Below the pieces are notes generated by a model. The model did not search any database, had not been told where the DNA came from, and saw nothing but the letters and a program-made list of their open reading frames with translations. Shown one piece after another: positions 4,409 to 14,905 of a stretch of 15,245 nt of DNA (positions are counted from its first letter, which is position 1; each line of letters begins with the position of its first letter). Source of the DNA: Armatimonadota bacterium. GTDB lineage: Bacteria; Armatimonadota; UBA5829; DTLH01. The position numbers and the translations under genes were made by a program. The stretch is from NCBI GenBank assembly GCA_039680575.1, contig JBDKSP010000099.1, forward strand, positions 1-15,245, given 5' to 3'.

Positions 4409-4444
4409 TATATTTTGCGTGTTTTCACTCACCAGGAGGACCAG

Positions 4445-7400
4445 ATGAAGGAAATTCAGCATAGAACCAAGCGTACACCGGGAATTATAGATATTCCGAA
4501 CTTGGTCGAGATCCAGCTTGATTCCTACAAGTGGTTTTTAAGAGAAGGACTTAGAGAACTCTTCCACAGTTTTTCCCCCATCCACGATTTTACGGGCAAT
4601 CTGTCGCTCGAGTTGGTAGATTACACTTTGGGCGACCCGAAGTATTCGGTAGAGGAATGCCGGAATCGAGATATGACATATGAAGCGCCTATCAAGGTCA
4701 AGGTAAGGCTTCAGGCCAAAGAAGGTGAGGTCATAGAGTCCGAGGTTTATCTCGGCGACCTGCCGCTCATGACCGAGAGAGGCACATTCGTGATAAACGG
4801 AGCAGAACGAGTGGTTGTAAGCCAGCTCGCCCGCTCATCGGGTGTATATTTTAAGGATACACTCGACTTTTCGGGACGTGTTCTTTATTTTGCTACGGTT
4901 ATCCCGAACGAAGGTGCATGGGTTGATATAGAGTCAGATGCGAACGATGTGATTTCTGTCCGTGTAGGCCAGACAAAGAAGTTTCCTCTGACTACGCTCC
5001 TGAGAGCGCTCAGTGCGTTTTCGGAGGCCTGCCCGGTAACGGAGATACTTCCGACCCGCGAGACTCAGGGGCGGATGCTCGTAGAGCCGATAGTCGATCT
5101 AGAGACTGGCGAGGTCCTTATAGATGCCGGAAAGACCATTACGGACAAATTGCTCGCTAAACTCGAAGGGCATAAGCTGCCCGAGAAGGCAGCGGTTGCT
5201 GCGGATTCTACCCCGTGCGATACAACGGGTGAGATTCTGGAACTTTTCTCAAAGAAGAAAAAGCTGAAGAACCCTACCAGGGACCAGTTGAGGGGCAGGA
5301 GGCTGTCCCACGAGATTATCGACCCAAAGACTCAGAAAGTCATACTAAAGGCTTATGCCAAGATTACCGAAGAGGCTGCCAAAAAGGTAGAAAACCTCAA
5401 GCTGGATGAAGTCGAAGTCCTCGATACGAACAGGTATGTCGAGGCAACAATCGATCAGGACGGCGCGAACAGCAAAGAAGAAGCGCTGATTGATATATAC
5501 CATAAGGTAAGGCCCGGAGATCCGGCAACACGCGACAGTGCGAAAAGCCTGCTTAACTCCATATTCTTCGATACCAGAAGGTACGACCTTGCCAGAGTCG
5601 GAAGGTATAAATTAAACAAGAAGCTCGGGCTCAACCTTCCCGAGTCCGTCCGCACCCTTACGAAAGAGGACCTGCTAAAGGTAATCGAGTATATAATCGG
5701 GCTGTCGGAATCCGGCGCTTTAGTTACTCACCTGGCTGTTTCGCGGCTGCACTCGCGTATCCCGGAGCTTGAAAAAGCTGTTAAGGATGCCGGAAAGGCC
5801 GCGACGCCCGAAGAGAAGGCAGAGGACGGCAAAATCAGCCGGCTCAAAGAGAGCCTGGAGGTTCTGCGGAACCTCAGGCTGGGCAGTATTTTGACCGAGC
5901 AGAAGATCAAGGGCATCAAAGAGCTTCTTGACCTGGTTCCAAACGGGCGCAGGCTCGTAGCTGAGACACCGGCGGAACTTTTCCCCGAGGAAACGGCTGT
6001 CAGGCTTTCACCATGCGATACCGATGACATCGACCACCTCGAAAACAAGAGAGTGCGGTCGGTCGGTGAGCTTCTCCAGAGCCAGCTCAGGATGGGATTT
6101 CTGAGGATGGAGAAGGTTGCGAAGGAGCGAATGACCAGCCTCGACCCTGAGAACGTAATACCGCAGGTCATCCTGTCGGTCAAGCCGGTCTCAGCGAGCA
6201 TAAAGAGCTTCTTTGGCTCCAGCCAGTTGTCCCAGTTTATGGACCAGACTAACCCGCTGGCCGAGTTGACTCATAAGAGAAGACTTTCAGCCCTGGGGCC
6301 GGGTGGACTTTCCCGCCAGAGCGCAAAACTCGAAGTCAGAGACGTTCACCACAGCCACTACGGCAGAATATGTCCTATCGAGACGCCTGAAGGCCCGAAC
6401 ATTGGGCTTATCGGCTCGATGGCCGTTCACGCCAAGATCGACGACTACGGTTTCATCAGATCTCCATACCGGGTCGTGAAAAACGGCAGGGTAACGAACG
6501 AGATCGTCTTCCTTCCCGCTGATGAGGATGATGAAGAGTACATCGCTCCGGCCAATACGCTTATAGACGAGAAAACCGGCAAGTTCCTGACGGATACCGT
6601 CCTCGTAAGGCACGAGAACGTCTACCCGCAGGTCCCGTCGGACAAAGTTACTTATGTAGACATCGCGCCGATGCAGATTATGTCGGTCGCTACAGCGATG
6701 ATCCCGTTCCTCGAGAACGACGACGCGAATCGCGCTCTTATGGGATCGAACATGCAGAGGCAGGCTGTCCCGCTTCTTCGCGCCGATGCTCCGATTGTGA
6801 GAACAGGCGTAGAGAGCCGCGCAGCACGCGATTCCAAAGCCGTCATCGTAGCAAAGCATGATGGCGTTGTGAAGAGCGTTACGGCCGAGAAGATTCTTAT
6901 CGAGACACTGGACGGGCAGGTAGACGAATACCATATGCTCAATATGCTTCGTTCCAACCAGGCCACCTGTGTTACTCAGAAGCCTATAGTAAAGTCTGGC
7001 AAGAGAGTAAGAGCCGGACAGGTCATAGCGGACGGTCCGTCGACTGATGGCGGCGAGCTTGCCCTCGGACAGAATGTGCTTTGCACCTTTATGCCGTGGC
7101 ATGGCTATAACTATGAAGACGCTATTCTGCTCTCTGAGAGAATGGTAATGGATGATGTCTACACCTCGATCCACATCGAAAAGTATGAGACGGAAGCCAG
7201 AGACACCAAGCTCGGTCCCGAAGAGGTAACAAGGGACATCCCGAATATCGGCGAGGACATGCTGAAAGACCTCGACGAGAACGGGATCATCCGAATCGGT
7301 GCGGAAGTCAGGCCAGAGGACATTCTAGTCGGAAAAGTAGCGCCTAAGGGCCAAGGCGAGCTTACAGCCGAGGAAAGATTGATTATCGCTATCTTCGGTA

Positions 7401-8962
7401 AGAAGGCCGAAGAGACCAGAGACGTTTCGCTCCGCGTTCCACACGGTGAAACGGGCAAGGTAGTCGATGTAAAGGTCTTCTCAAGGTTCAAATATAAGTG
7501 CACCAGGTGCGCTACTGTATATAATTTCTCGAAGAAGCCGGAAAGAACGCTCTGCGAGCGCTGCGACGGCGAGCTTTCGAGAGAGCCCGGAGATGAGTTG
7601 CCGGCAGGAGTCAACCAGCTCGTGCGCGTTTACATAGCCCAAAAACGAAAGGTTATGGAAGGCGACAAGATGGCAGGACGCCATGGCAACAAGGGAGTTA
7701 TCTCGAAGATCCTCCCGATGGAAGATATGCCGTATCTGCCAGATGGGACTCCGGTGGATATAGTCCTGAACCCGTTGGGCGTGCCGAGCCGAATGAATAT
7801 CGGACAGATCCTCGAGACACATCTTGGATTGGTCGGCAGGGAGCTCGGAGTAGCATTCCGCAACCCGATATTCCAGGGTGCTGTCGAGCGCGAGATACTT
7901 GCCGATCTCGATATTATGGCATGGAAACTCAAGTTGAAGGCTCTGAAGAGCTATGTGATATCAGACCTGAAGCTCGAAATCGAGTTCCCTGAGATTGACA
8001 GGCTCCAGTCGATGCTGGACCAAGCGCTGAAGAATGTCCAGGAAGTCTTCAAACAGAGTGATCTGGATGCGATAATGACGCCGTTCTATGACGCCTGGGA
8101 TTCCTGCATCGAGAGGATAAGAGCGAAGGTATCCGAGTTCGACGCGAGAGACCTTGAGATCATGAGCGCGAGAGTCGGAGCTTCTGCTGTAGTTGACGAT
8201 CCCGTGGCGGTTGCCGAGTCGCTTGTTAAGGATGAAAGCGAGGAGGAAACAGAGGAAGACGCTGAAACCGAGGCCAAGACTGAGGATGAAGGTCCGCTTC
8301 CTTACGCAGGTGAGCCTGCTCCCGCGGATTATGACATAACCGGAATAATCGACCATATTATCGATAACGTGATGCAGCGAGTCGGCCTCGAAGAGGTCAG
8401 AGAAGAGAACAAGGACGGCAGTGTAAAACGGCACTTGAGCGGTAAGATTCAACTCCACGATGGTTTGACCGGTCTTCCGTTCAATCAACCGTCTACTGTC
8501 GGTTATATCTACATGCTCAAACTCTCGCACCTTGTCGAAGACAAGATTCACGCCCGGTCGACTGGACCTTACTCGCTTGTGACCCAGCAGCCGCTCGGGG
8601 GTAAGGCGCAGTTCGGCGGACAGAGGTTCGGAGAGATGGAAGTCTGGGCGCTTGAGGCATACGGCGCGGCCTACACTCTCCAGGAGATACTGACTATCAA
8701 GTCCGACGATGTGCTCGGACGTGTCAAGACATATGAGTCAATCGTGAAAGGCGACAGCATGCTTGAGCCGGGCGTGCCGGAGTCATTCAAGATTCTTGTC
8801 AATGAGCTTCAGAGTCTCGGCCTCAAGGTCACCGTCGAGGATGACCGCGAAAGAGCGATCGATCTCAAGGACCATGAAGACGAGTTCGGTGAGGGAGATG
8901 GCGCTGGCAGGATCACTGCAAAGCGCAAACAGAAGGCTCTGGAACTCAAGGAGGATTTCTAA
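4445..8962 (+). CDS. rpoB: DNA-directed RNA polymerase subunit beta, 1505 aa, with several lineage-specific insertions
   Basis: [93 protein letters not shown] 4434-4439 before ATG 4445. Confidence 0.99.
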
Positions 8963-11900
8963 ATGGCTGACGCAAGAACCTTTGATAAGATACGTATAGG
9001 GATTGCATCGCCTGATGAGATAAGGGGATGGTCCTGCGGCGAAGTCAAAAAGCCGGAGACCATAAATTATCGGACGTTCAAGCCCGAACGCGACGGACTG
9101 TTCTGTGAACGGATTTTCGGGCCGGTCAAGGACTGGGAATGCCACTGCGGCCGGTATAAGAAGGTCAAGTTCAAAGGAATCGTATGCGACCGGTGCGGAG
9201 TCGAGGTAACGCGTTCCAAGGTCCGGCGCGAGAGAATGGGACACATCGAGCTTGCGTCTCCGGTATCACATATTTGGTACCTGAAGGGCGTACCGAGCCC
9301 GATGGCTCTGCTTTTGGACATCAGTCCGAGGCCGCTTGAGCGGGTTCTCTACTTTGCGTCCTATATAGTAACGCAGATCGACCGCCAGGCTATAAATGAT
9401 CGCCTGGAAGACATAAGAGGCGCTGCCAACGCAGAGATAGAAGAGATAGAGTCTCAGAAGGACGCGGCTATCGCCAAACTTCGGCGCGATCAGGTCAAAG
9501 ACCAGAAGGAACACGAAGAAGAGTGGTCAGAGGATGATGTCGAAGCCAGTAAAAAGCAGCTTTCCGACCGGATCAAGCAGGAAGAGAAAGATGCTGTCGA
9601 GCGGGTTGAGGAGACGCAGAACACTCTGAAGCTCATTGAGAGCCTTCAGCGAAGGGAACTGATAAACGAAGACCAGTACAGGGCGCTTGAGAGGTTCCTC
9701 GATGCCATCGGCCAAAGGCTGGATGTGAACCTTGCCGCATTGGTGAAAGCCGGCATGGGCGGCACCGCAATCAAGGAACTTCTAATGGAAGTCGATCTTG
9801 AGAAGATGGCTCGCGAACTCCGCAAGGAGATTTCGCAGACGCAGGGACCGAAGAGAGCCCGCGCAATCAAGCGGCTTGAGGTTGCCGATGCGTTCATCAA
9901 CTCTAAGAGCAGGCCGGAATGGATGATTCTCGACTGCATACCGGTCATTTCACCTGAGCTGAGGCCAATGGTACAGCTCGACGGCGGTAGGTTCGCCACA
10001 AGCGACCTGAATGACCTTTACAGAAGGATCATCAACCGGAACAACCGGCTTAAGAAGATCACGGATATTCGCGCTCCTGAGTCGATTATCAACCATGAGA
10101 AGCGGCTTCTGCAGGAGGCCGTGGACGCACTGATCGACAACGGCCGCCGGACAAGACCGGTAGTAGGCTCGAACAACAGGCCGCTCAAGTCACTTTCCGA
10201 TATGCTGAAGGGTAAAGAAGGCCGGTTCCGAAAGAACCTGCTTGGAAAGCGCGTTGACTATTCCGGCCGTTCGGTCATCGTAGTCGGTCCTCACCTGAAG
10301 CTGCATCAGTGCGGTCTTCCTAAGGAAATGGCTCTTGAGCTCTTCAAACCGTTCGTGATGAAGACACTGGTCGAGCGCCAGTACACGTCAAACATCAAGA
10401 CGGCGAAGAGAATGATCGATAAAATGAAACCAGAGGTCTGGGATGCACTCGAAGAAGTGATCCGGGAGCACCCGGTCCTTCTGAACAGAGCGCCGACGCT
10501 TCACAGACTGGGAATCCAGGCATTTGAGCCGGTACTGGTCGACGGTAAAGCGATCCAGGTTCACCCGCTGGTATGTCATGCGTTCAACGCGGACTTCGAC
10601 GGGGACCAGATGGCGGTGCATGTACCGCTCTCGACCACCGCTCAGGCGGAGGCGAGAGTGCTGATGCTTGCAACGCACAACCTGTTCTCTCCCGCGGACG
10701 GGCGGCCCGTCGTTGCACCGACCCAGGACATCGTTTTGGGGGCATATTATCTGACCCAGAAGAAGGATGTCAATGATGATTACGTGCATCCGATATTCGC
10801 CAATCAACAGGAAGCGATGTTCGCCTATAACAGCGGCGCTATCGGCTTGCATGACCCGATAAAAGTCAGGCTGGACTATAACGGCGAGCGGAAGATTTAC
10901 GAGACTGCGGTTGGCCGGTTGATATTCAACCAGATCCTGCCGGAGGGAATGGACTACGTAGACTATGAGATAGACAAGAAAGCGATGTCCAATCTCGTAA
11001 GTGACTGCTATGCCCAGTTCGGTGCAGAGAAGACTATCCTGCTTTTGGATGATCTGAAGGACATCGGGTACCGGTATGCGACGTTTGGTGGAATCACCAT
11101 CTCGATGACGGATATGGATATTCCCGGTAAGAGAGACGAGATCATATCCCGGACTGAAGATGAGGTCAAGAAACACAACAGATACCATCAGCGCGGACAT
11201 ACGACCGCTGCGGAAAGGAAGCAGAAGGTCCTTGACCTCTGGCTTAAAGCATCGGAAGATGTCGCTGAGGCTATTCTTGATAAGATCGATAAATTCAACC
11301 CGATCTATATGATGACCAACTCCGGTGCGAGAGGTAGTAAGAGACAGATCACACAGCTCTCCGGTATGCGAGGCTTGATGAGCGACCCGTTCGGAAACCT
11401 GATCGAGGACCTTCCCATCAAGTCGAACTTCCACGAGGGGCTGAACGTTCTCGAATACTTCATCTCGACACACGGTGCGAGAAAGGGTCTGGCGGACACC
11501 GCTCTTAGGACGGCGGACGCGGGTTACTTGACTCGAAGGCTTGTAGACGTCGCCCAGGATGTCATCGTTCGAGGTGACGACTGCGGTTCGGTCCAGGGTA
11601 TCTACGTAACCCAGATCGAAGAAGGCGGAGATGTCATAGAACAGCTGCACGAACGGATCGCCGGTCGCTATGCGCTTGAGGATATTTATCTTCCTGGTCA
11701 GGACGAGCCGATCGTCCGCGCAAGCGAGGAAATAACGGATGATGCAGCCAAGCAGATTGAAGACGCAGGTATCAAGAAGGTCGGTATACGTTCGCCGCTC
11801 TTCTGCGAACTGAGACACGGAATCTGCGCCAAGTGTTACGGCCGGGATATGGCTCTCGGCAAGTTGATCGAGGCTGGGACTGCCGTTGGTATTATCGCAG

Positions 11901-13288
11901 CGCAGTCTATCGGTGAACCTGGTACGCAGTTGACGATGAGAACCTTCCACACAGGAGGCGTCGCCGGAAAGTACCTGACAGGGGTTGCAGAGGTCAAGAA
12001 AAAGAAACAGGAGTCGCTCCGAGAACTCCACGACGACATTCGCCGCGGACTCGTATCATTCGAGGAAGAGGGAATGCCTGCAAGTGCTGAACGCGAGAGG
12101 GTCCGCGCTGTCCAGGCGGTACTCAAGGTCCTTGAGGACCAGGTGCGAGGACTCCTTCGGGTAGTAGAGCTCTTCGAGGCCAGAAAACCTAAAGGTCAGG
12201 CGATTATTACGGAAGTAGCCGGTAAGGTTGTGGACATCGATACCCGTGGCTTGAAGCGGGTGGTTATTCACTCGACAGCAGCGGGGTCTGATATTGCCGC
12301 GATGGCCGGTGAGGTCGCCGCTGAAGACATCATCGACCCGCAGACCGGCGAAGTGATGGTTTCAGAGGGCACAGACATCACCGAGCGGATAGCTCGAAAG
12401 GTAGCAGAGGCTCAAGTCCAGGAAGTCGTGCTGAGAAAGACCCACCTGGTGCCTCACAGAGGTAAGCTGAACGTCGAAGTCGGCGATGAAGTCCGGCCCG
12501 GCAACAGACTGACTGAAGGTCCGCTCGATCCTCAGAAGGTTCTGGAACTCCAGGGCGTGCACGGTATTATGGAGTATCTCGTTGGAGAGATCCAGAGCGT
12601 GTACAAGAGCCAGGGTGTCGATATCAATGACAAGCATGTCGAGATCATAGTCCGGCAGATGCTGAAGCGCCGCCGTGTTCTCGAAGCCGGAGATTGCAAG
12701 TTCCTTCCGGGACAGGTTGTCGATAAGTTCGACTTCGAGGATGAGAATACCCGGATAAGAGAGCAGGGTGGAGTCGAAGCTACCGCAGACTGGCTACTCC
12801 TCGGTATCACAGAGGCATCTCTTGCTACTGACAGCTTCCTGTCGGCTGCGTCGTTCCAGAAGACGACCAGAGTCCTGACGGATGCTGCCGTAAGGGGTAA
12901 GAGAGACAACCTGGTAGGTCTGAAGGAGAACGTAATTATCGGCCGGTTGATTCCTGCAGGAACAGGTCTGCCTCGCTTCAGGTTGCTTGAAGTCCTGGGT
13001 GAGGATAAAGAGCCGATATTTACGCCGAAGAGCCTCCTTGAGGTGCAACCGGAAGAGGAAGAGGAGCTGTTTGCGATCACTCCCCAGCCTGAGGAGATAG
13101 CTGTGGACAGCCTGCTGCCTGTCGGGGATGAAACCGAGACCGAAGAGGAGGAGCAGGTGGATACCCTGCTCAATGTCGAAGAAGAGATCACTTCGGATGA
13201 GGAAGACCTTGTCATACCCGACATCGACGAGGAAACTCCTGACCTCGACGAATCGACTATAGACGAAGACTCAGAGTCAGCAATCTAG
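8963..13288 (+). CDS. rpoC: DNA-directed RNA polymerase subunit beta', 1441 aa
   Basis: N-terminal Zn finger ([16 protein letters not shown]), catalytic NADFDGD (10586-10606), bridge helix [65 protein letters not shown] 8948-8954 inside the rpoB 3' end. Confidence 0.99.
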
Positions 13289-13653: not shown

Positions 13654-13738
13654 CGTCGACAAAGATAGCGAAATTGTGTATCTTGTGGTTATATCCCGAT
13701 GGACGGGGAAGTTATCAACGCTGATAAGGATGGTTGAT

Positions 13739-14905
13739 GTGGCGATAAGCTGTTTTACTCGACCCAGTATCGAACGCCTTAATCAAGGCCTGCCGCTGAT
13801 TGCTGCTGATCCGAATGGTTGGGATAACGGTTTTACGTTGAACCCGACTGTTGTTCGGCTGGAGCGGTCCTTAAAAAATGACAAAATCATACAGAGTATA
13901 TTAAGCCGGCACACTCTTGACGATCTACGGCTTAAGGACGGCATCGTCGCCGTCTTCTACAGGGGAATACCTAAGGAGACTCCGGGAAATCCGCTCCTTA
14001 GGTCTGCCGTCGGACTTGCGGTGTTCACACCGAAGTTCGAGCTTCTTGAGAGATTGGGGTATCCACTCGTCGTACCGGAAGATAGCATCCTGGGATACGA
14101 TTATAATGGAGTGGAAGACCAGCGGGTAACTCGGATTGGCGACACATTCTACATGGTGTACTGCGGCTATAATCCGAACTATCCTATCGAGCATAATATT
14201 CATATCTGCATGGCTCAGTCCGACGATTTGCTTCATTGGACCAAGCTTGGGCCTATAAGCGGAAGCGTGAACAATTATCCGAACAAGGATGCGGTCATCC
14301 TGCCGGAACCCGTCAATGGGATGTATGTGATGCTGCACAGACCCATGATCGGACAGCAGGGCAGTTTCAGCATCGCGCTTGCTGCGAGCCATTCACCGAC
14401 GGGAGAATGGCAGGATTACGGCACGATTATGCGGGCGACTCCGAATCCGCGCTACAGGACGTCCTGGCTCGGTGCAGGGTCTGCACCTCTGCCTCTTGGC
14501 GACAATCGTTATCTTGTGGATTATCACACCGGTAATTATTATGCTACAGGAGAGAGAGACTATTATGCGGGATATGCCATACTGAACTTCAGCAAGTTGG
14601 ATATCAACGATCCTGAGTCGATTGTCGAAGCCCGCTGTGATTGCATGCTGGAGCCGGAGACGCCTTATGAACTCAACTCTCCATGGCCCCATGGAAAGAA
14701 CCTTAACTGCGTCTTTCCTGCAGGAAGCTGCGAGTATGGCGATGATCTGATCCTGCTCTATGGCGGAGCGGACGCATACGTGCTTGGAGCGCGGGTCAAG
14801 AAGCGAGAACTGGTTGCGTTTCTTGAGTCGATAGGTAATAATTACAAATTTAATACAGATCCCCTAGGCGAACCGGTAACAAACAGAAGAACAGTATCAA
14901 AATGA
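13739..14905 (+). CDS. GH130-like five-bladed beta-propeller glycoside phosphorylase/hydrolase (beta-mannoside-type), cytoplasmic
   Basis: Motifs LNP, GVEDQRVT (cf. G.EDPR), NKDAVILPE, MLHRP, GAGSAP, YH, EPETPYE, VFPAG, YGGAD; no signal peptide. GTG 13739 is 8 nt after SD TAAGGA (13725-13730); ATG 13730 and GTG 13676 are in-frame alternatives. Confidence 0.8.
   Translation: MAISCFTRPSIERLNQGLPLIAADPNGWDNGFTLNPTVVRLERSLKNDKIIQSILSRHTLDDLRLKDGIVAVFYRGIPKETPGNPLLRSAVGLAVFTPKFELLERLGYPLVVPEDSILGYDYNGVEDQRVTRIGDTFYMVYCGYNPNYPIEHNIHICMAQSDDLLHWTKLGPISGSVNNYPNKDAVILPEPVNGMYVMLHRPMIGQQGSFSIALAASHSPTGEWQDYGTIMRATPNPRYRTSWLGAGSAPLPLGDNRYLVDYHTGNYYATGERDYYAGYAILNFSKLDINDPESIVEARCDCMLEPETPYELNSPWPHGKNLNCVFPAGSCEYGDDLILLYGGADAYVLGARVKKRELVAFLESIGNNYKFNTDPLGEPVTNRRTVSK

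Follow-up and report, generated by a model that had tools for sequence, protein, structure and literature searches.

In Armatimonadota the trigger loop of the RNA polymerase β′ subunit contains an insert that is a real, ancient and phylum-wide remodelling of this element. The insert was found in 141 of 141 loci of the phylum, covering all 42 sampled families (49–112 aa in the 138 loci measured), and in 0 of 78 loci from outside it, where the largest excess was 5 aa. A helical hairpin placed in hinge 2 of the trigger loop and acting like SI3 of E. coli appears to be the best explanation overall, mildly favoured rather than secure. The DNA analysed, called the window below, is a stretch of 15,245 nucleotides from an Armatimonadota bacterium (GenBank assembly GCA_039680575.1, contig JBDKSP010000099.1).

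The rpoC locus and its trigger loop

The gene order in the window is tuf (3′ end), secE, nusG, rplK, rplA, rplJ, rplL, rpoB, rpoC and a GH130-like gene; the names of the ribosomal and translation genes upstream of rpoC are presumed ones, given according to family features of the translations. The rpoC product scored 1695 bits against TIGR02386 (cut-off 963.5), and its membership in the RpoC family is also indicated by five Rpb1 Pfam domains, the NADFDGD motif at residue 542 and the aligned M/R/H residues of the trigger loop. The closest named match to this rpoC is an Armatimonadota MAG (96%), and both named genomes that match across the insert belong to Armatimonadota (96% and 72%). The features relevant to the insert are as follows.

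8963..13288, + strand: rpoC, RNA polymerase β′; ORF of 1441 aa in the tuf-secE-nusG-rplKAJL-rpoBC cluster
11381..11440, + strand: altered F-loop; one extra residue, Phe810, and His824 for Arg764
11519..11521, + strand: bridge helix Ala853 for Ser793, numbering from the alignment to E. coli β′
11927..11950, + strand: trigger helix 1a (TH1a), intact; M992/R993/H996 correspond to E. coli M932/R933/H936 in the alignment to E. coli β′
11960..11983, + strand: VAGKYLTG, probable TH2a equivalent; L1005-T1006-G1007 correspond to I1134-T1135-G1136, judging by spacing and HMM alignment to GEDITQ
11984..12148, + strand: net 55-residue insertion V1008–R1062; probable position in hinge 2, between G1136 and G1137; length relative to the 78 outgroup loci
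11993..12043, + strand: predicted insert helix 1, V1011–R1027; amphipathic, with a basic N-terminal run; AF2 pLDDT about 80 over most of it
12053..12085, + strand: variable tip loop, V1031–S1041; accounts for most differences in length; within-class majority frequency 0.62
12080..12136, + strand: predicted insert helix 2, A1040–L1057; AF2 pLDDT 67–84; ends in the near-invariant LKVLE
12149..12181, + strand: GLL and base helix TH2b (RVVELFEA); from the alignment to E. coli β′; helical in AF2

The insert lies inside the trigger loop, between RTFH and GLxRV. The 60 residues that the earlier note had quoted are indeed encoded in frame in rpoC (11969–12148), and they replace five canonical residues, giving the net insertion of 55 aa. 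Both insert helices are amphipathic (hydrophobic moments 0.53 for helix 1 and 0.42 for helix 2), residues D1025, K1055, E1058 and G1063 are invariant in the 44 core-type rows of the alignment, and tip extensions of about 25 aa occur in family f26. The within-class majority frequency is 0.93 and 0.89 for the insert helices versus 0.72 for the rim, 0.77 for the jaw and 0.70 for the shelf (n = 29), which points to selection; at the level of the phylum the helices reach 0.48, no better than the jaw or shelf (0.50–0.52), in an alignment that includes some misaligned rows.

Several other features of the window deserve mention. The gene 3′ of rpoC (13676–14905) encodes a GH130-like glycoside phosphorylase (Pfam PF04041, E-value 1.7e-22). 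The rpoB product (4415–8962) is a β subunit of 1515 aa with long additional segments, including a CxxC...CxxC loop near residues 1024–1054 and an acidic helical stretch. The β′ subunit has a helical insert around residues 140–260 (window 8963–9800), and its jaw (12299–12427) holds a second BEAN-like domain (HHalign 98.7% against the outgroup shelf BEAN). An apparent charge swap in β′ replaces E. coli K1311 with Glu (12812–12814) and E1327 with Lys (12860–12862); the pair is E,K in 239 of 285 rows and K,E in 36 of 37 outgroup rows. The tip of the rim helices (about 11180–11210), a docking site of secondary-channel factors, reads RGHTT in the window and in a same-genus genome, and GLIT or GQIT in most relatives.

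Distribution of the insert and loss of the hinge proline

The earlier note had made no mention of a spread across the phylum, which emerged here from all the families sampled. The 141 loci comprise 81 (with that of the window among them, and perhaps one or two genomes counted twice), a further 57, and three read by eye; the sampling was non-random, with 60 loci drawn from better-scoring matches and low-scoring families chosen on purpose. Locus L162, with masked bases and a broken frame, and the second-match loci L156, L157, L163 and L164 were left out of the counts. The outgroup is formed by 78 loci among the pattern-scan matches listed, from Bacillota, Actinomycetota, Chloroflexota, Patescibacteria and others, sister phyla lying outside the sample. 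A genome search across the phylum matched 195 of 201 genomes, and every name shown for the 120 listed entries, out of 275 homologous to the insert region, was Armatimonadota or Armatimonadetes. When a quick tree was built from the core with the insert removed, one branch separated 58 Armatimonadota rows from 18 outgroup rows (SH-aLRT 99).

As a separate observation, the NTP-contacting Arg933 is replaced in loci L251 (genome G208) and L254 (G151), which read MMTFH and MQTFH and belong to family f22, genus g83; L257, from the same genus, keeps Arg933, and the replacement is striking if real.

The replacement of the conserved hinge proline by leucine, reported in the earlier note, was confirmed: GGA CTC CTT CGG (12149–12160) encodes G-L-L-R, with CTT at 12155–12157, and G1063-L1064-L1065-R1066 aligns to E. 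coli G1137-L1138-P1139-R1140. The hinge reads GLL in 124 of the 141 Armatimonadota loci, has a proline in five (four SLP in family f18 and one GIP) and differs otherwise in 12; of 119 close database homologues, 118 also have GLL and one could not be parsed. The outgroup has the proline in 78/78 loci (77 GLP, 1 GMP). A sequencing error, CTT for CCT, is ruled out by the occurrence of GLL in relatives and because it is encoded there with six different Leu codons (CTG 39, TTG 10, CTC 8, CTT 7, TTA 2 and CTA 1, for the 67 GLL loci among 81). Since five of the 141 insert-bearing loci have a proline, its loss is not obligatory; the proline-bearing family f18 nests among GLL lineages in the quick tree with weak support (83), which suggests a reversion. 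In yeast Pol II, most P1099 variants are reported to lose function (PMC5127505, in part), implying that loss of the proline is not simply neutral.

HHalign comparisons clearly indicate homology of the core-type insert to the inserts of families f20 and f26 (95% and 98.6%). The similarity to f18, f32/f12 and f35 is weak (2–8%, above reversed controls), and homology to the f13 segments of 102–118 residues was not detected by HHalign (0.2%). Judging by these sequence comparisons, a single origin of the insert followed by divergence is likely, if less firmly so for the families f18, f32/f12, f35 and f13. The f13 (L153, L154, L160, L161) and f35 (L152, L155) inserts are far longer, 88–112 aa, and rich in Lys, Ala and Glu; f13 loci end in GIV. 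An insert-profile search of 1.84 billion representatives revealed 37 matches, 35 of them β′ proteins or fragments and two repeat artefacts; of the 19 longer matches, one could not be aligned and the other 18 were nearer to Armatimonadota than to the outgroup. No stand-alone homologue of the insert was found in this search, and a 55-aa helical pair may have remote homologues; searches of Pfam, NCBIfam and the ESM Atlas gave no match over the Pfam cut-off, no NCBIfam match and no usable Atlas match.

Predicted fold and site of insertion

The AF2 model of the insert in its context (644 residues, 116-row alignment; pLDDT 83, pTM 0.81) has TH1 helical through H996, followed by uncertain coil at 997–1010, insert helices at 1011–1027 (H318–334) and 1040–1057 (H347–364) with pLDDT mostly about 80, a break at E1058–R1062 and TH2b from G1063 (H370–378). 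It is highly probable, on the strength of this modelling, that the insert consists of two helices with a break before TH2b, and an antiparallel hairpin with a variable tip is the most likely arrangement, with a presumed packing of the two helices. The fold search with the isolated model gave 50 listed matches, all generic helical pairs with Z up to 7.3 and none of at least 8, so that the hairpin is inferred and a new fold is not shown by the search itself. Foldseek with the long model listed RNA polymerases in all 50 rows. When the free insert and the β′ core were modelled as a complex, the score was 0.00, uninformative either way. The top covariation pairs (284 rows, Neff 99) were V1008–L1065 and A1009–V1061; they were not counted, since these columns hardly vary except in 15 divergent rows and the signal is confounded by phylogeny.

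The helical, non-SBHM character of the insert, proposed in the earlier note, is borne out by both AF2 models, which contain helices and no strands, and by profile comparison. The identity of the insert with SBHM/SI3 was rejected: HHalign gave 0.07% (E-value 0.69) against E. coli SI3 and 0.74% against the jaw SBHM, while the positive control, the jaw SBHM against SI3, matched with 78% (E-value 1.8e-5). The further proposal that the helices could extend the trigger helices did not hold in the 644-residue model with its break at E1058–R1062, and appears only in the low-confidence isolated model (106 residues; pLDDT 58, pTM 0.31), where helix 2 runs unbroken through GLL from residue 64 to 97. This continuous helix would agree with an insert at the SI3 site, whose helix 2 (LEDQVR) replaces TH2a, continues into TH2b now that the proline is lost, and pre-orders the folded state. 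Such an arrangement, judged rather improbable, fits the position of LKVLE-x-x-V-x-G as the most conserved block and the treatment of VAGKYLTG by AF2, which left it unfolded as low-confidence coil (pLDDT 54–58); it is disfavoured by the residues found at 1060 (Pro in 5 of 44 rows) and 1062 (Gly in 12 of 44), and by the similarity of the segment before GLL to the canonical motif, the lowest of the candidates considered below. Moreover, the E. coli 6Ala enzyme, in which both hinges are stabilised, is reported to add nucleotides 25–300-fold more slowly (PMC4227799, in part), which also speaks against a stiffened helix.

Three segments are candidates for the canonical xDITxG: KYLTG after GGVAG, EDQVR before GLL, and the internal DDIRR-G. 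The earlier note held that DIT is missing at its normal place, which proved incorrect, since Asp alone is lost and KYLTG stands at the canonical spacing; relatives have KDLTG, KTITG or KSIAG there, and the HMM places VAGKYLTG opposite the canonical segment. Counting from FH, a triplet of a hydrophobic residue, [T/A/V] and [G/A/S] follows at a distance of 8 or 9 residues in 129 of 138 Armatimonadota loci (nine not matched); in the outgroup, 77 of 78 loci have I-T-x at one of these two positions, and the split between them is the same. The canonical spacing of KYLTG means that the insert most likely splits hinge 2 and does not occupy the site of SI3, which is described as lying between the loop and TH2a (PMC4227799, in part); unlike in SI3-bearing enzymes, the I-T-G equivalent precedes the insert in those 129 loci, and DIT-x-GLP is absent after it. 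Sequence alignment therefore gives reasonable preference to the hinge-2 register, with KYLTG as the TH2a equivalent, and the insertion site is probably new compared with SI3. Glycine at the 1136 position, present in 43 of 44 rows, has been reported to be linked to the carriage of trigger-loop inserts (PMC4756841, in part); the link is merely suggestive here because it was drawn from SI3-bearing enzymes.

The internal DDIRRGL was found where the earlier note had located it (12032–12052), and its resemblance to the canonical motif is the basis of another reading, in which it represents the true or a duplicated TH2a–hinge 2, and the insert arose either when trigger helix 2 was duplicated in tandem or through two insertions on either side of the motif. 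The motif coincides with the end of insert helix 1, D1025-I-x-x-G1029, with D in 44/44, G in 43/44 and Ile in 28/44 core-type rows, and xDIxxG has the best mean BLOSUM score of the three registers (10.3, against 3.4 for KYLTG and 1.9 for the segment before GLL; the 95th percentile for insert 5-mers is 4.8). Nevertheless, the duplication that the earlier note had hinted at is unproven: the motif was picked for its D and G, its surroundings do not match, the canonical downstream sequence was not found after it, and no DNA repeat linking it to the other hinge-like motifs was detected in window positions 11700–12400. Helix 1 would in any case be expected to end in a glycine cap, and the tip of the rim helices likewise fits hydrophobic-x-x-Gly-hydrophobic, a general helix cap motif, which may make the resemblance a generic one. 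This reading is quite unlikely, and the hinge-2 register is retained below.

The comparison with the rim extends to the whole insert, which might be copied from the hairpin of the rim helices (RGLIT..ER...V) or imitate it, and so give Gre an additional place to dock or a decoy, or else serve as a built-in proofreading aid. The rim helices were the best of eight β′ regions in HHalign, at merely 1.4–2.2% (E-value 0.02–0.04) over 15 columns, and a sub-threshold HMM alignment (0.4 bits) linked the insert to the rim helices of two PDB sequences. The many genomes with two Gre paralogues, one of them with a Glu-type tip, would suit such a role, but Gre is kept in most genomes and Asp-type tips are common, unlike in cyanobacteria (PMC10895346, in part). 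Overall, a mimic of the rim is very improbable.

Proposed role and comparison with known trigger-loop inserts

Two neighbouring elements differ in the same enzymes. The F-loop, described as atypical in the earlier note, has one extra residue in 78 of 81 Armatimonadota loci (three not parsed), and the shorter length is found in 72 of 78 outgroup loci (six not parsed); His stands for Arg764 in 61/81 Armatimonadota versus 0/78 outgroup loci. At bridge helix position 793, Ala is present in 45 of 46 Armatimonadota rows and Ser in 35 of 37 outgroup rows.

The Gre N-terminal domain (PF03449) was found in 113 of 121 genomes, which rules out loss of Gre or its replacement by the insert; accordingly, there is no Gre trade-off of the cyanobacterial type, cyanobacteria being reported to have no secondary-channel factors (PMC10895346, in part). 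A PF01258 zinc finger was found in 34 of 61 and not in genome G000. Among the 40 Gre tips parsed from 46 loci the Asp type is the commonest (GDLSEN 14, GDLREN 5), and many genomes have a second paralogue with a Glu-type tip. The single Gre factor found in G000 (G000:C3:11951-12163) has the Glu-type tip GEVTENAEY; the Asp-type paralogue, present in most relatives, is perhaps missing from this 96.8% complete assembly.

In the proposed scenario, an ancestral Armatimonadota RNA polymerase would have acquired an insertion of ~50 residues in hinge 2, between VAGKYLTG and TH2b. Its junction EDQVR would take over the helix break that is supplied elsewhere by Gly-Leu-Pro, so the proline would have become free to change to Leu, which may pack on the base of the hairpin. 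Because TH2a folds for fast catalysis, a hairpin at its end would have to move or be accommodated during each nucleotide addition; it may lie as a mobile element at the entrance to the secondary channel and bias the folding of the trigger loop, with consequent effects on elongation rate, on pausing and on how readily the retained Gre factors gain access. Along with the insert, the F-loop and bridge helix would have changed. In E. coli, blocking TH2a is reported to cost 1–2 × 10^3-fold in kcat, and SI3 to inhibit trigger-loop folding and to aid hairpin pausing (PMC4227799, in part); the defects of TH2a, hinge and P1099 mutants make it unlikely that an insert at hinge 2 is inert. By analogy, the insert probably tunes the speed and pausing of the polymerase, and an SI3-like function of the hairpin seems slightly favoured.

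The same hairpin could instead be a structural fixture, docked rigidly and kept for folding or assembly, with little part in regulation, having been fixed by drift and later become entrenched. The tolerance of the tip for long extensions, the very divergent inserts of some families and a sequence that suggests no specific partner are consistent with that, but the insert is kept in all 141 loci and interrupts a segment reported to change conformation at each nucleotide addition (PMC4227799, in part), and this explanation is considered unlikely. The mobile hinge-2 hairpin can also be developed into a broader proposal, put forward only tentatively: the phylum would have rebuilt the C-terminal half of its trigger loop, with the hairpin replacing Gly-Leu-Pro and moving through the secondary channel at each addition, and forming, together with the remodelled F-loop and the second Gre paralogue, a regulatory module independent of SI3.

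SI3 (β′ In6) of E. coli comprises 188 aa and two SBHMs, and cyanobacterial Si3 has 645 aa. What SI3 and the Armatimonadota insert have in common is a lineage-specific domain in the trigger loop, Gly at 1136 and an intact TH1a; unlike SI3, the Armatimonadota insert has about 55 aa, is predicted to be helical, probably follows TH2a and is accompanied by the loss of Pro1139. Cyanobacterial Si3 accompanies the loss of secondary-channel factors, whereas Armatimonadota keep Gre. Engineered changes of the same hinge-2 residues include the 6Ala, DIPP, GGPP and G1136M/S variants of E. coli and the yeast Rpb1 P1099 variants; these hinge and TH2a mutants are slower or functionally altered, while the Armatimonadota change occurs in nature, is close to fixation throughout a phylum and comes together with an insert. 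Trigger-loop insertion domains of non-SBHM type are reported for phage RNA polymerases (PMC7618050, in part), namely phiKZ (gp74 396–533) and the AR9 nvRNAP; they have about 138 aa, belong to phage enzymes and provide a precedent for independent gains at the trigger loop. These gp74 and AR9 domains were not among the 50 listed structural matches of the insert.

Bacterial trigger-loop inserts are treated as SBHM-type, with several large phyla listed as having none, in the relevant passages of PMC11077087 and PMC10895346. A BEAN/HABAS survey assigned two Armatimonadetes β′ subunits to type 2, which has no insert in the trigger loop (PMC11515920, Table S2, in part). The insert is not mentioned in the available sections and passages of PMC11515920 or in its Table S4, nor in the available part of PMC7203096, and the name Armatimonadota does not occur in the supplement of PMC11077087. 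In the literature searched, no description of the Armatimonadota insert was found. As modelled, a helical trigger-loop insert is of a kind not seen in solved bacterial enzymes, and is a new fold type for bacteria.

The insert is a candidate sequence signature for Armatimonadota. It represents a second, independent solution to the placing of a domain in the trigger loop, with a different fold, probably a different site, and the loss of a proline that all 78 outgroup loci keep. Armatimonadota enzymes are a naturally occurring experiment on the part played by hinge 2 and TH2a in catalysis, translocation and pausing, and could show whether the secondary channel can be gated by an appendage regardless of its fold.
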